Shown: positions 15,449 to 30,147 of the stretch, one piece after another
Layout: every line of letters starts with the position of its first letter
Position numbering within the stretch: position 1 is the first letter of the stretch
NCBI GenBank assembly: GCA_039809465.1
Contig: JBDHVB010000001.1
Coordinates: 10,465-74,464 of the forward strand
Length of the DNA stretch: 64,000 nt
Source of the DNA: Myxococcota bacterium
GTDB taxonomy: Bacteria; Myxococcota; XYA12-FULL-58-9; JALHOP01
Direction: 5' to 3'
Made by a program: the position numbers and the translations under genes
The notes under the pieces: model-generated
Databases searched by the model: none
The model's input: only the letters and a program-made list of their open reading frames with translations
What the model was told of the DNA's origin: nothing

Positions 15449-16327
15449 TCACGGAGCCGCGAAGTTCTCACGCATCCAAGCCACCAAACGGTCCATCAGG
15501 ACGCGGCGATCACGGATGAACGAATAGACGTGATCGGCGCGGTGGTAATACTCGCCGGTGACCGCTTTAGAAGACGCGAGGCGCGGGAACATCTCGAAGA
15601 GCTGCTCCTTGCCGTTGAAGCTGTGGTCGACCTCGCCGGTGTACGCGAAGAAGAGCTTCGTGCCCCGCTCCACCATGGCGTCGAATTGCTTGGCCAGCTC
15701 CTCGAGCGGCGGATACTCGCGCACGAAGATCTCGTCGACCTCACCGGTCTCGCGTACGCCCTTGGTGGCGGCTGCGTAGGTATAAATCCAGCGGCGGCGG
15801 ATGAAGCGCCGCCAGCGTGCCCACTGCAGCCAGCGGCTGGTCCAGTAGCGGCGCTTGTAGCCGCTGGTGCGGTAGGCGTAGCCGTCCAGGAAGACCGCGC
15901 CGACGACGTTCGGGTCGCGGACGCTCACGAGGTGCGCGGCATCGACGCCCGAGCACAACGACATCAGCACCAGGCGTTTCGCGCCCAAGCGCTCGTCCAC
16001 GAGCTTTGCCGCGTCCCCGAAGTCGAGCACGGCGCGCTCGATGTCGGAGACCGTCTCGCGGCGCGGCTCGCTGTCACCGAGCCCGGCGGTGTCGAAGCGC
16101 AAGGTCGCAAAGCCCGCCTCGGCGAGCTGGCGCGCGGTGTCGACCCACAGGCGGTACGGACCAACATGATGGTTGAGACCGACATTCGCGGCCAAGACCA
16201 CCGGCGCCCCAGCGATGGCCTTCTCGGGCGACGGCTCGGTGATGACGCCGACCAGTCCGCCGTGTGCGCCAAAACGGACAGCGCGCTCGCGGTATGCCGG
16301 TGCGGGCTTGATCTGGACGGCCGTCAT
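15449..16327 (-). CDS. alpha/beta-hydrolase-fold protein (paralogue 2), Cys at nucleophile-elbow position
   Basis: RFDTAGLGDSEP and LMSLCSGV (S-L-C-S-G elbow). 4-nt overlap with the upstream paralogue. Confidence 0.5.
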   Translation of the reverse strand: MTAVQIKPAPAYRERAVRFGAHGGLVGVITEPSPEKAIAGAPVVLAANVGLNHHVGPYRLWVDTARQLAEAGFATLRFDTAGLGDSEPRRETVSDIERAVLDFGDAAKLVDERLGAKRLVLMSLCSGVDAAHLVSVRDPNVVGAVFLDGYAYRTSGYKRRYWTSRWLQWARWRRFIRRRWIYTYAAATKGVRETGEVDEIFVREYPPLEELAKQFDAMVERGTKLFFAYTGEVDHSFNGKEQLFEMFPRLASSKAVTGEYYHRADHVYSFIRDRRVLMDRLVAWMRENFAAP

Positions 16328-17091
16328 TGTTCCTCGAGAGAACGCACGATGGTCTGCAGCGCCGCCATGGACAAGAGCGCCGCCTCCCGTTGCATGCCGC
16401 CCCCCGCGGCTTCGTCTCGCACTTCGACGCGCTTGGCGGCAAGCCCAGACGTGGTGAGGTGATCGACGAGCTGCTGGTGATCGGCGCGGCCCGTGCTCGA
16501 GACCACCACCGCCCGCTTGGCCTTCGGCGTCACGCTCAGCAGGTCGAGGCCGCGGGTGTCGCGGGCGAGCTGCTCGGGGAACGGGAAGCCGATGAGCTCA
16601 TCGGCCTGCTCGCCGTCGTGGTAGAGCAGGCGCGCGAACTTACGGACGGCGATGGCGGCGAGCTCGTCGACGTATGGGCCGCCCTTCACGACCGGCTCCC
16701 AACGTACGAGATCGCGGACGGCGAGGCCTTCGGCGGCTGCCTTGGCGGCGAGGGTCGCGCCCAGCCGCAGGCCCACCACCGAGACGTGATTCACGCCCGC
16801 CATGTCCTTGAGCTCGGCCGCGGCGATGCCGATGTCCTTGTTCCAGATGTCGAGCGCCGCCTCGTTGCTGTCGCCGGCCGAGTCCCCGGTGGCGTAATAG
16901 TCGAAGCGCAGGGCGTGGAAGCCACGCTGCGATAGCAGAGTCGCGAGCCTCCGCATCGCCCAGTGCGTGCGCATGTACTCCTGCGGCGCCGGGTAGCAGA
17001 GCAATACCCCGAGGTCGCGTGGGGCCGCGCGGGGTGGGTGGTAGACGCCGTAGAGCTGTCGTTCAGACGGCCCGAAGTAGACTGGATTCAT
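16324..17091 (-). CDS. alpha/beta-hydrolase-fold protein (paralogue 1), Arg at nucleophile-elbow position
   Basis: RFDYYATGDSAGD and VVGLRLGATLAA (G-L-R-L-G). Start lies 7 nt downstream of the NRPS stop. Confidence 0.5.
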   Translation of the reverse strand: MNPVYFGPSERQLYGVYHPPRAAPRDLGVLLCYPAPQEYMRTHWAMRRLATLLSQRGFHALRFDYYATGDSAGDSNEAALDIWNKDIGIAAAELKDMAGVNHVSVVGLRLGATLAAKAAAEGLAVRDLVRWEPVVKGGPYVDELAAIAVRKFARLLYHDGEQADELIGFPFPEQLARDTRGLDLLSVTPKAKRAVVVSSTGRADHQQLVDHLTTSGLAAKRVEVRDEAAGGGMQREAALLSMAALQTIVRSLEEQ

Positions 17092-29400: not shown

Positions 29401-30147
29401 GATCTCCGCGAGCGACTGCATGGCGATGAACGGCATGAAGACGCGCGCGATGCGCTCGTCCTTCATGAAGCGCAGCAAGCGCACCGTGTCGATGCGCAGA
29501 TCCTCGTCGACGAGCATGAGCTCGCCGCCAGCGCACCAGGTGCCGAAGAGCTCCTGGAACGAGACGTCGAAGGCGAGCGGCGAGAACTGCAGCGTGCGCT
29601 CACCAACGCCGATCTTCGAATCGCCGAGCTGCCATTGAATGAGGTTCGCGAGCGGCTTGTGGATCATCGCGACGCCCTTGGGGCGGCCGGTCGATCCCGA
29701 GGTGAAGATGACGTAGGCGAGGTGCGACGGACCCGCGACGATGGGCAAGCGCTCGCGACGCGGCAGTGGCGGATCCTTGTCCATCAGGATCGGATCGCGG
29801 CCCGCGACCAGCTCGGCCGTCAGGCTGTGCGCGACCACGTGCTGCACCCGCGCGTCGTCGAGCATCGCCGCGAGACGCTCGCGCGGATACGCTGGGTCGA
29901 GGGGCACGTAGGCGCCACCAGCCTTCAAGACCCCCAGGACGGCGACAGCCATCTCGAGCGAGCGCGGCAGACAGACCCCGACCACCACGTCGGGCCCCAC
30001 TCCGCGTTCGCGGAGCAACACGGCCAATCCGTTCGCGCGGGCATCGAGCTGGGCATAGCTCAGCGTCGCGCCTTGGAAGGTGGCGGCGGGGCTCTCTGGA
30101 GTACGATCGGCTTGGGATTCGAACCGAGAAATGACTGTCGGGATCAT
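23419..30147 (-). CDS. hybrid NRPS-PKS: A-PCP-KS-AT(malonyl)-ACP-aminotransferase (AMT)
   Basis: A domain (YVIFTSGSTGRPKGV, FDVS, NHYGPSETHV, YKTGDL). PCP (GGNSL). KS (TACSTSLVA, EAHGTATPIGDP, GSVKSNIGH). AT (GHSVGEF, HAFH, so malonyl). ACP (LGVDSL). C-terminal class-III aminotransferase (DEVITGLRMG, TYGKVIGGGMP). Start is ATG 30147, or TTG 30231. Confidence 0.9.
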   Translation of the reverse strand: MIPTVISRFESQADRTPESPAATFQGATLSYAQLDARANGLAVLLRERGVGPDVVVGVCLPRSLEMAVAVLGVLKAGGAYVPLDPAYPRERLAAMLDDARVQHVVAHSLTAELVAGRDPILMDKDPPLPRRERLPIVAGPSHLAYVIFTSGSTGRPKGVAMIHKPLANLIQWQLGDSKIGVGERTLQFSPLAFDVSFQELFGTWCAGGELMLVDEDLRIDTVRLLRFMKDERIARVFMPFIAMQSLAEIAPSPELTPTSLREMITAGEQLQVTPQLVRFFEAIPGCTLANHYGPSETHVVTAMTLTGAPSSWPKLPSIGRALPNVTTPILDEKQKPVPEGEVGELYLGGAHLARGYLHRPELTAERFVTVNGERLYKTGDLARVRPDGDIDFLGRADGQVKIRGHRVELGEVEIAVTEHPKVRQAAAAVRDGRLVAYIVGDDDGSLVAQVRDQLTKKLPVYMVPTSFVMLAELPKTPSGKIDRKSLPDPPRVRPDLATPWVAPEGPVETAIAQRWADILKIDNVGRDDNFFDLGGNSLLAVRAIAELRESQGVDVPVTKLYEQPTVRGLAGAVAGESSASAAPARVKSRKVTAEPIAIVGMAARYPGARDLDALWKNLVQGVETIGRFRPEELPAAHRGLADYVAARGVLEDVESFDASFFGVTPGEASVLDPQQRLLLELAWEALEHAGHVPERIDGAVGVFAGTHLNTYFQNNLFKRPEVEARIGAFNVMVASEKDYVATRVAHRLSLTGPAISIHTACSTSLVAIAQAIDSLHLGRCDVALAGGASVIVPQKAGHVYADGGIMSRDGSTRSFDAQGSGTVFSDGGGMVVLKRLSDAERDGDTIYALLTGAALNNDGGDKASFMAPSSSGQSAVIALALEDAGVSARDIDYVEAHGTATPIGDPIEVEGLTRAYRKHTGDVGFCGLGSVKSNIGHTVAAAGVAGVIKTALALHHQLIPASLHYTTPNPAIDFAKSPFQVVTQAKSWPRGERIRRAGVSSFGVGGTNAHVIMQEAPVIGDRQSAFGNRSSAIGDRPSVIGDRPYVLPLSARNPQTLGTLTDRFLSALANDNLPLSSIATTLALGRRSFAERRAVVATSRDEAIAALKSGEPRKVITRTVPPKAVHVVFMFPGQGSQTVGMGKKLYERYSVFRAAVDECADKLQPHLGKDLRDLIWPPSSVSADAAAATLRDTAIAQSALFTIEYATAKLWMDFGVKPTAMVGHSVGEFVAACLSGVFSLDDGLRLVATRGRLMASMQPGSMMSVRMTEAELAKELPPGVSIATVNAPMLSVVSGPTEAINAFAEKLAAKGVAAKTLHTSHAFHSAMMDAALPPFRDTVKTIKLSEPTIPFASTVHGAWVDAKTACDVEYWTTHLRNTVRFVDAMATIAVDDARLLLECGPRNALSQLARQQPAEKGRGRVVASLAEGLVEDDEDSAFQNALAQMWTWGAPIDWSRVYADEDVRRVALPTYPFDRKRHWVDAAVAQTAAQPAAAPPIEVIAQPPVQPVQESPVMAKSDATLEALKRAFEDVSGLDLASADPGASFFELGVDSLLLTQLALKVQQTFGVKVTFRQLTENFGSLGALVEHLEASGAGVAAPAPAPQPSAAPAQMPVQQAAPMMFAQQPMMMSAPMAGGDPLRQLIDAQLRVMQQQLALMGGQPMMAMPMAADGRQPIADGRLPIADGRQPIADSRLPMTDGRSPIADHRSPTTAPKSAEADDEIKATQKYDVKKAFGAIARITTTSDGSLTPKQQARLDALIRRYTQKTAKSKAYTTEHRPHLADPRVVTGFRPLTKELVYQIVVDRSKGCRLWDIDGNEYIDALNGFGSNFFGNSPDFITKAIREQLDKGYELGPQHVLAGEVAKLFCELIGADRAGWCNTGSEAVMGAMRIARTVTGRKTIAIFTGSYHGIFDEVLVRGTKTLRSLPAAPGIMPEGVANVLVLDYGTDESLKIIRERAHELAAVMIEPIQSRRPDFAPREFVQALREITEKAGAALIFDEVITGLRMGPGGAQEYYGVKADIGTYGKVIGGGMPIGVIAGKRAWLDALDGGFWQFGDDSTPPVGVTYFAGTFVRHPFALVAAKAVCEYFKTHGPSVQKGVTAKAERFQAELNKFFEDIGTPIKVKRFASLWKIMFTADQPYGDLLFVTMRDKGLHILDGFPCFMTLAHSDADVDRMIAIVKESTRELIAGDLLPGKAESEPQALDASNPPVPGARLGKDRDGRPAWFVPNPNEPGKYMQVNA
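25018..25165. repeat. tandem ~21-nt (heptad PIADGRx) repeats inside the ACP-AMT linker
   Basis: atcggc-based periodic DNA. Protein reads ADGRQPIADGRLPIADGRQPIADSRLPMTDGRSPIADHRSP. Confidence 0.7.
27011..27100. repeat. second copy of the GDR heptad repeat, in the KS-AT linker
   Basis: cgatcgccgatgaccg periodicity. Protein reads VIGDRQSAFGNRSSAIGDRPSVIGDRP. Confidence 0.65.

Follow-up and report, generated by a model that had tools for sequence, protein, structure and literature searches.

A predicted proline-primed, beta-aminating NRPS/PKS operon of a Myxococcota bacterium that lacks a thioesterase, and the conserved alpha/beta-hydrolase pair that follows it

Introduction

How does a finished chain leave a nonribosomal assembly line that has no thioesterase (TE)? 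The question is raised by a 64,000-nucleotide (nt) stretch of DNA from a Myxococcota bacterium (GenBank assembly GCA_039809465.1, contig JBDHVB010000001.1, positions 10,465 to 74,464; hereafter the window), which carries on its minus strand two megasynthase genes, g1 and g2, followed by two genes for alpha/beta-hydrolase-fold proteins, h1 and h2. g1 encodes a hybrid of nonribosomal peptide synthetase (NRPS) and polyketide synthase (PKS), in which adenylation (A) and peptidyl carrier protein (PCP) domains precede ketosynthase (KS), acyltransferase (AT), acyl carrier protein (ACP) and aminotransferase (AMT) domains. g2 encodes an NRPS of two modules, each with a condensation (C) domain, an A domain and a PCP. 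A sequence-only reading of this DNA had proposed the order A-PCP-KS-AT-ACP-AMT followed by C-A-PCP-C-A-PCP, and Pfam places the same domains along the two proteins, with E-values as low as 1e-185 (far beyond chance).

The four genes are tightly packed, translationally coupled and form one operon. The stop codon of g1 and the GTG start of g2 overlap as GTGA, as expected from the coupling that had been suggested for the megasynthase genes; the ATG of h1 begins 7 nt past the g2 stop, and h1 and h2 overlap by 4 nt (ATGA). The G+C content at third codon positions (GC3) is 0.86-0.92 across all four. We consider it somewhat better than an even chance (probability roughly 0.55) that this is a functional operon for a three-module assembly line, the Pro-C2-amine-Gly-Gly chain of which is released by h1/h2 via Cys125 of h2. 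What the sequences show directly is the order of the domains, the intact catalytic motifs, the specificity codes, the conservation of h1/h2 and the gene fusions described below; the chemistry of each step, the roles of h1/h2 and of the C-terminal tail of g2, and the final product are what we infer from them.

Predicted proline loading and in-line beta-amination

Pfam identifies AMP-binding, PP-binding, KS, AT, PP-binding and Aminotran_3 domains in g1, in that order. Score and motifs identify the loading domain as a genuine amino-acid A domain, and its code is one for proline. It matches TIGR01733 (amino-acid adenylation) with 404 bits, above the cut-off of 317, and Asp235 is present. The sequence-only reading had quoted FDVS (found here within FDVSFQE, g1 residues 193-199) and a code beginning D-V-Q; extraction via motif anchors gave the full code DVQFIAHVVK. 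DVQFIAHVxK is given as the proline code for iturin synthetase (PMC2866473), and Val236 and Gln239 are typical of proline-activating A domains (PMC12283262).

The PKS module that follows has the features of a MycA-type module: an intact Cys-His-His set in the KS, a malonyl-type AT, and an AMT directly after the ACP, with the lysine for pyridoxal phosphate (PLP) and the aspartate in place. The quoted HAFH motif of the AT was recovered (g1 residues 1321-1324), and we take it to mark malonyl specificity. The assignment of the AMT to the MycA type also holds. Aminotran_3 (PF00202) covers g1 residues ~1799-2157, and the domain aligns end to end with the AMT of MycA (PDB 6kfm; 449 residues, E 1.6e-118, ~400 bits), with the PLP Lys and Asp conserved (TYGKVIGGG and DEVITG, against TYGKIIGGG and DEIITG in MycA).

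As in MycA and ItuA, which make mycosubtilin and iturin in Bacillus, KS-AT-ACP is followed by a class III aminotransferase resembling glutamate-1-semialdehyde aminomutase, which converts a beta-keto thioester to a beta-amine ahead of an NRPS C domain. This shared logic is what speaks for an ordinary iturin- or mycosubtilin-type lipopeptide starter, or for membership of a characterised cluster with a known product. The starters differ, however: proline on A-PCP here, a fatty acid on a fatty-acyl-AMP ligase (FAAL) and ACP there. The unit expected here is a vicinal beta,gamma-diamine, in place of the beta-amino fatty acid. The two glycine modules of g2 end without a TE, whereas members of the iturin family have seven amino-acid modules and a TE that uses the beta-amine for ring closure. 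On the evidence of the A domain (TIGR01733 score, Asp235, proline code, no FAAL) we reject the lipopeptide reading, and consider this whole alternative very improbable.

McyE and NdaF (microcystin and nodularin) and other cyanobacterial beta-amino polyketide modules also have an in-line AMT after a PKS module, then C-A-PCP, as here. They extend long polyketide chains and cyclise them with a TE, whereas in g1 a single C2 unit would extend an amino acid. Amino acids, proline included, are joined to one malonyl unit on a hybrid NRPS-PKS module in the statine- and detoxinine-type units of detoxins and rimosamides; there a ketoreductase turns the beta-keto group into a hydroxyl, and here an AMT in its place would give an amine.

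Within g1 there are also two arrays of a 7-nt unit with a period of 21 nt (7 amino acids), at 25020-25144 and 27017-27098. Translated, they give PIADGRx repeats in the linker between ACP and AMT and IGDRxSx repeats in that between KS and AT, and they are recent in-frame expansions, as they are absent from the orthologues at loci L001 and L002.

Two predicted glycine modules and no thioesterase

Two copies each of Condensation, AMP-binding and PP-binding were found in g2 by Pfam. Both C domains have HHxxxDG, and, as had been noted, both A domains contain TLSFDIAGLE. The proposal that they are glycine-like, with codes starting D-I-L, is borne out by the full codes, which are identical (DILQLGMIWK) and match one reported for glycine-activating domains (PMC12283262). 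From colinearity, C1 should take the beta-aminoacyl-ACP as its donor.

The absence of TE and reductase domains had been pointed out as well. A Pfam scan gave no Thioesterase or reductase match in g1 or g2, and no PF00975 in g2 or the neighbouring genes.

A large orphan family

Sequence comparison places the cluster in a large and widespread family that is still orphan, so it does not stand alone. The sequence-only reading had been unable to match it to a named cluster. That part stands: in a megablast of the whole cluster against a plasmid collection all matches were short stretches of A domains (6% of the query covered at best), full-text literature searches gave no description of this cluster, and neither source held a characterised cluster colinear with it. 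Two papers considered, one on Lysobacter genomics and one on Collimonas carenaemin, describe clusters that differ from g1-g2-h1-h2. These results count further against a characterised cluster with a known product, as does the fact that the closest genomes are metagenome-assembled genomes (MAGs). The implied singularity does not stand, since a metagenome scan with the AMT gave 572 relatives.

The closest genomes are of uncultured Myxococcota, and two of these MAGs hold the same four genes (81-85% amino-acid identity, also for g1 itself). One of them has a third glycine module, and in another the AMT is on a separate ORF. Further out, an AMT search returned a very large set of proteins with 62-66% identity, many of which are stand-alone ACP-AMT proteins (Corallococcus, Aggregicoccus, Lysobacter, Rhodanobacter, Rubrivivax and others). 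In an unrelated assembly (L011) the cluster is distributed over three genes, and the Pro/Gly/Gly codes are the same.

The best 80 of the 572 metagenome relatives were annotated, and the family counts given here are over 86 loci. Most of the 80 share one plan: a variable amino acid, a C2 unit, a beta-amine and glycine. The recurrent loading module is A(x)-PCP-KS-AT-ACP-AMT, with either a Pro-like code, DVQF[IM]A[HQ]VV, or a Val/Ile-like one, DA[LF]L[LFMI]GGTF. It is extended by C-A(Gly)-PCP and then usually by C-A(Gly)-PCP or C-PCP; the number of glycines varies from 1 to 3 among relatives. The lines end in an ordinary TE (34 ORFs) or are TE-less. As accessory genes, 28 loci have one for a phosphopantetheinyl transferase (PPTase), 14 and 8 have genes for Cupin_8/JmjC-like proteins, and 11 have one for a TIGR04325 methyltransferase; genes of exopolysaccharide (EPS) type occur in 23 of the 86.

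Two subsets deserve a note of their own. In five TE-less loci (L022, L023, L028, L029 and L032) neither h1 nor h2 was seen in the fetched stretch, and the NRPS is followed directly by genes for polysaccharide deacetylase, Wzy_C, Wzx and GT2. A low-GC, TE-terminated variant, A(Pro-like)-PCP-KS-AT-ACP-AMT with C-A(Gly)-PCP-TE, occurs at L040 and at seven similar loci (L027, L030, L034, L038, L046, L070 and L075) and is adjoined by a gene for a Wzc-like tyrosine kinase. Of these low-GC loci, Pfam was run on L040, where the genes between the NRPS and this kinase encode a PPTase, an OEP-like protein and a sugar transferase.

The hydrolase pair

The two alpha/beta hydrolases downstream had been mentioned in the sequence-only reading. 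Pfam confirms both assignments; the emphasis needs correcting, since h1 and h2 form a conserved, specialised pair that is the most unusual part of the locus and the most probable release machinery. Pfam finds Hydrolase_4 and Abhydrolase_6 only, and no PF00975. The two proteins are distantly related to each other, and neither has the canonical GxSxG serine: at the nucleophile elbow h1 has GLRLG and h2 has SLCSG.

h2 has Cys125 (in SLCSG), Asp148 and His266, and a lid helix rich in Trp and Arg at residues 157-182. A profile search gave 3526 relatives at E<=1e-30 among 1.84 billion representative proteins. In an alignment of diverse homologues, Cys125 and His266 are invariant (141 of 141), Asp or Glu is found at position 148 in 140 of the 141, and the elbow pattern across the family is G/S-L-C-S-G. 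An AlphaFold model (predicted local distance difference test score, pLDDT, 91) places Cys125 directly after strand beta5 and His266 after beta8. TE domains with a Cys nucleophile have precedents in SulM and ObiF (PMC11298585). These share with h2 the alpha/beta-hydrolase fold, a Cys-His-Asp triad and a PCP-bound peptide substrate (PMC11298585), but are in-cis PF00975 domains that form beta-lactam or beta-lactone rings, whereas h2 is free-standing, belongs to another subfamily, has a nucleophile-less partner and carries its acid residue after strand beta6.

That partner, h1, has Arg109 at the nucleophile position (GLRLGA), at least 90% conserved and, in its AlphaFold model (pLDDT 92), directly after strand beta5. 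No His is conserved past beta8. h1 is probably a non-catalytic adaptor, judging from these residues.

Searches of the PDB with the models of h1 and h2 returned only generic esterases and lipases, with template modelling (TM) scores of 0.5-0.7. The nearest curated families are the exosortase-A-associated hydrolases, TIGR03100 (hydrolase 1) for h2 and TIGR03101 (hydrolase 2) for h1, with scores far under the cut-offs (73 bits against 168.45, and 87 against 202.75). All 41 of the 41 h1 homologues have TIGR03101 as their best match, each below the cut-off. TIGR03100 and TIGR03101 proteins are an adjacent pair encoded beside an adenylating enzyme and a carrier protein, a likeness to h1/h2. Unlike in their context, a search of the 64-kb window gave no exosortase/PEP-CTERM (EpsH1) or EPS genes.

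The genomic contexts of the pair are more telling. h1 and/or h2 adjoin the NRPS in 25 of the 86 family loci, and that NRPS is always TE-less; TE-terminated relatives are without the pair. At three loci (L011, L012 and L037) h1 is covalently fused to the terminal PCP. h1 and h2 are also fused to each other, as proteins of ~600 amino acids (aa) with the Arg and Cys elbows kept, in Mycetohabitans, Azospirillum and Burkholderia (L097, L099 and L100). In the MAG that contains L001, h1/h2 also follow a lone C-A-PCP (L095, 10855-14121) and, in another genome, an unrelated PKS-NRPS with a TubC_N docking domain (L104, 1-10897). Because of the fusions to the terminal PCP, the h1-h2 fusions and the recurrence behind TE-less NRPSs, we read the pair as off-loading machinery.

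The fused forms lie on M. rhizoxinica pBRH01 (L097), Azospirillum brasilense p2 (L099) and B. gladioli BSR3 bgla_4p (L100), beside genes for an ACP, an acyl-CoA dehydrogenase, an amino acid--[ACP] ligase, DUF1839 and GH2/beta-mannosidase, or in an EPS locus. The pair would, from these neighbourhoods, also serve other orphan carrier-protein systems.

Could h1 and h2 instead be editing or unrelated hydrolases, with the chain leaving PCP3 by spontaneous intramolecular aminolysis or by a thioesterase encoded elsewhere? The predicted chain would have two free amines able to attack the thioester, h1 is without a canonical triad, and the nearest PDB structures are of generic enzymes. Against this stand the translational coupling of all four genes, the three fusions of h1 to a terminal PCP, the occurrence of the pair strictly behind TE-less NRPSs and the conserved Cys-His-Asp/Glu triad of h2; nor do ten- or eleven-membered lactams form readily when uncatalysed. 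We therefore consider it improbable that the pair has no part in release.

A MinD-like tail on g2

The extreme C-terminus of g2, behind the terminal PCP, resembles that of Escherichia coli MinD, which is a membrane-targeting sequence. g2 ends ...EEPKKGLFGKLFGR and MinD ends ...EEEKKGFLKRLFGG; between the g2 tail EPKKGLFGKLFGR and the MinD tail EEKKGFLKRLFGG, 9 of 13 residues are identical. The g2 tail sits on an NRPS carrier domain, unlike that of MinD, a ParA-type ATPase. By our reading of the listed tails, similar basic and hydrophobic tails end ~38, nearly all, of the TE-less NRPSs of the family, and TE-terminated and non-family NRPSs are without them. Since a calculation of the hydrophobic moment was not discriminating, the tail may be a membrane anchor or a docking peptide.

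Proposed release of a free peptide or transfer to the envelope

We predict that A1 loads L-proline onto PCP1, that the KS condenses the prolyl unit with malonyl-ACP to 3-oxo-3-(pyrrolidin-2-yl)propanoyl-ACP, and that the AMT converts the beta-keto group to a beta-amine, which would yield a beta,gamma-diamino (vicinal diamine) acyl unit. C1 and C2 would then append two glycines. By colinearity the chain on PCP3 would be 3-amino-3-(pyrrolidin-2-yl)propanoyl-Gly-Gly, a dibasic pseudo-tetrapeptide with the free acid C11H20N4O4 ([M+H]+ 273.156). It would pass to Cys125 of h2, as a Cys-His-Asp alpha/beta hydrolase, from which either water would free it or one of its own amines would attack, giving a macrolactam ([M+H]+ 255.145). 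h1 would be a non-catalytic partner, keeping h2 at the terminal PCP, and the basic tail of g2 probably either brings release to the inner membrane face or docks h1/h2.

The same pair could instead transfer its cargo. If h2 were a transacylase, a hydroxyl or amine group on a polymer of the cell envelope, or on its lipid-linked precursor, would receive the Gly-terminated cationic chain from PCP3, and the product would be a decoration rather than a diffusible metabolite, by analogy with the D-alanylation of teichoic acids by the Dlt system. Candidate acceptors are an exopolysaccharide, a periplasmic glucan or a membrane lipid. The clearest context for transfer is that of Variovorax paradoxus VAI-C (L098, CP063167.1 2393525-2426112), where a cluster with a Val/Ile-type loader, C-A-PCP-C-PCP, a PPTase, h1 and h2 is followed, after a gap of 27 nt, by a complete EPS operon on the same strand (wza, wzc, sugar transferase, glycosyltransferases, flippase and GDP-fucose/mannose genes). 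The fused h1-h2 of B. gladioli BSR3 lies within an EPS locus, and the other neighbours of the fused proteins (ACP, amino acid--[ACP] ligase, DUF1839, GH2/beta-mannosidase) would suit transfer as well. So would the best curated matches of the pair, which are the two hydrolases of the EPS-linked exosortase A system, and the EPS-type and TIGR04325 methyltransferase genes of the family. A Cys nucleophile is found in polyhydroxyalkanoate synthases, the tail of g2 and the Trp/Arg-rich lid of h2 fit work at a membrane, a glycine number of 1 to 3 is expected for a spacer, and opgH is divergent from g1 and adjoins it.

Against transfer, no EPS genes lie downstream of h2 at L103, L104 and L105. At L105 an ABC ATPase gene adjoins h1/h2 instead, which fits an exported free product. 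In the metagenomes EPS-type genes occur almost only where h1/h2 were unseen, although the loci end ~1-2 kb past h2 and the count is weak. The window is without an EPS locus, its opgH and opgG are housekeeping genes that adjoin the cluster only in close relatives, 34 relatives have an ordinary TE end, and the scores of h1/h2 against TIGR03100 and TIGR03101 are low. Because L103, L104 and L105 held no EPS genes, we demoted a general EPS link from the leading idea to a rival, and a transacylase h2 is in our view the main alternative, though an unlikely one. We favour a free small peptide, formed by hydrolysis or lactamisation, over a decoration of glycan or lipid, since these three further contexts (one with the ABC ATPase) and the window hold no EPS genes.

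Several points weigh against release of a free peptide by h1/h2 as set out above. The exosortase-type hydrolases as nearest curated families, and the V. paradoxus cluster at the head of an EPS operon, favour transfer over simple hydrolysis. h1 may not be inert, because Cys32 at the end of its strand beta3 is invariant. An amphipathic character of the g2 tail found no support, as its hydrophobic moment was matched or exceeded by 89% of shuffles, in a method that did not discriminate MinD itself. Lacking next to the operon, within the window, are genes for a PPTase, MbtH, a transporter or resistance. The specificity codes predict the substrates of the A domains and are not proof of them, and the product is a predicted one, from a family with no characterised member.

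Gene layout and flanking genes

The coordinates of the operon and its domains are given in Table 1; they are those of the whole 64,000-nt stretch, and the gene calls come from an open reading frame (ORF) listing and direct reading of the junctions. The GC content of the window is ~67%. A search of the whole window found no PPTase, MbtH, Cupin_8, TIGR04325 methyltransferase or EPS-type genes.

Table 1. Genes and domains of the operon, with the convergent neighbour
Feature	Position	Strand	Description
g1, hybrid NRPS/PKS	23419..30147	-	ATG start, 2242 aa; A(Pro)-PCP-KS-AT(malonyl)-ACP-AMT (ORF listing, Pfam, NCBIfam)
A1 adenylation domain	28618..30087	-	Predicted Pro; FDVSFQE at 29551-29571
PCP1	28393..28632	-	GGNSLL, Ser at 28531-28548
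KS	27088..28377	-	TACSTS, EAHGTAT, NIGHT
AT	25798..26787	-	GHSVGE and HAFH; malonyl-type motif
ACP	25342..25590	-	GVDSLL; second PP-binding stretch in Pfam
AMT, class III PLP aminotransferase, MycA type	23578..24909	-	YGKVIGGG (PLP Lys) 24052-24075; DEVITG 24136-24153
g2, NRPS	17099..23422	-	GTG start, 2107 aa; C-A(Gly)-PCP-C-A(Gly)-PCP (Pfam, specificity codes)
C1 condensation domain	22073..23407	-	HHVVCDG
A2 adenylation domain	20504..21961	-	Predicted Gly (DILQLGMIWK)
C2 condensation domain	18965..20281	-	HHAIWDG
A3 adenylation domain	17375..18835	-	Predicted Gly (DILQLGMIWK)
PCP3, terminal	17153..17389	-	GGHSLL
C-terminal tail of g2	17102..17134	-	Last 11 residues, KKGLFGKLFGR; resembles E. 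coli MinD tail (KKGFLKRLFGG)
h1, alpha/beta-fold protein	16324..17091	-	ATG start, 255 aa
h2, alpha/beta hydrolase	15449..16327	-	292 aa
MutS-like gene, convergent, downstream of h2	13624..15417	+	597 aa

The flanks are housekeeping in character: the MutS-like gene downstream, and opgH/mdoH (853 bits against a cut-off of 419) divergent from g1 upstream, with opgG and a his operon. The MutS-like product is not a canonical mismatch-repair MutS, because it shows the signatures of domains III and V only and scores 114 bits against the MutS cut-off of 480. In the his operon (35777-37030, minus strand) there is an uncommon three-part fusion of 417 aa, with a His_biosynth (HisA/HisF-type) barrel, PRA-CH and PRA-PH (HisIE). 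Two long ORFs of high GC3 have no Pfam match, one of 419 aa at 76-1335 and one of 566 aa at 41507-43207 (both plus strand); the latter also has no NCBIfam match. Towards the right end of the window are genes for an IS21-like transposase (rve and Mu-transposase C-terminal domains, 53650-55161) and an IS66-family transposase (57415-58296), in a region of lower G+C (0.62-0.66).

Implications

For a specialist, the surprising part of this locus is the h1/h2 pair together with the MinD-like tail, not the NRPS/PKS, and beyond the architecture our account is inference throughout. The beta-amination logic of MycA would be applied also to amino-acid starters, and the vicinal-diamine pseudo-dipeptide unit would be new compared with characterised assembly lines. 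Metagenomes from soil, sludge and freshwater commonly contain this amino-acid-primed design. h1/h2 are a large, uncharacterised protein pair that is here pointed to as an alternative to the thioesterase, and since the pair also stands beside other orphan carrier-protein systems, one explanation could cover several kinds of gene cluster. With V. paradoxus VAI-C there is a cultured, tractable relative in which a free metabolite and a glycan decoration can be told apart directly.

A broader and more speculative proposal, which we hold to be unlikely though worth stating, is that h1/h2 are a new, very widespread two-component off-loading module, made of a Cys-His-Asp hydrolase and an Arg-bearing pseudo-hydrolase. 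It would replace the TE in NRPS/PKS lines and serve amino acid--[ACP] ligase systems as well; with the tail as its guide to the membrane, it would there move Gly-terminated cationic chains to envelope glycans or lipids. If this were true, and if the distantly related exosortase-A-associated hydrolases work alike, those hydrolases would gain a function, and the amino acid:carrier-protein ligase clusters, which have been without an assigned function since about 2006-2010, would be explained.

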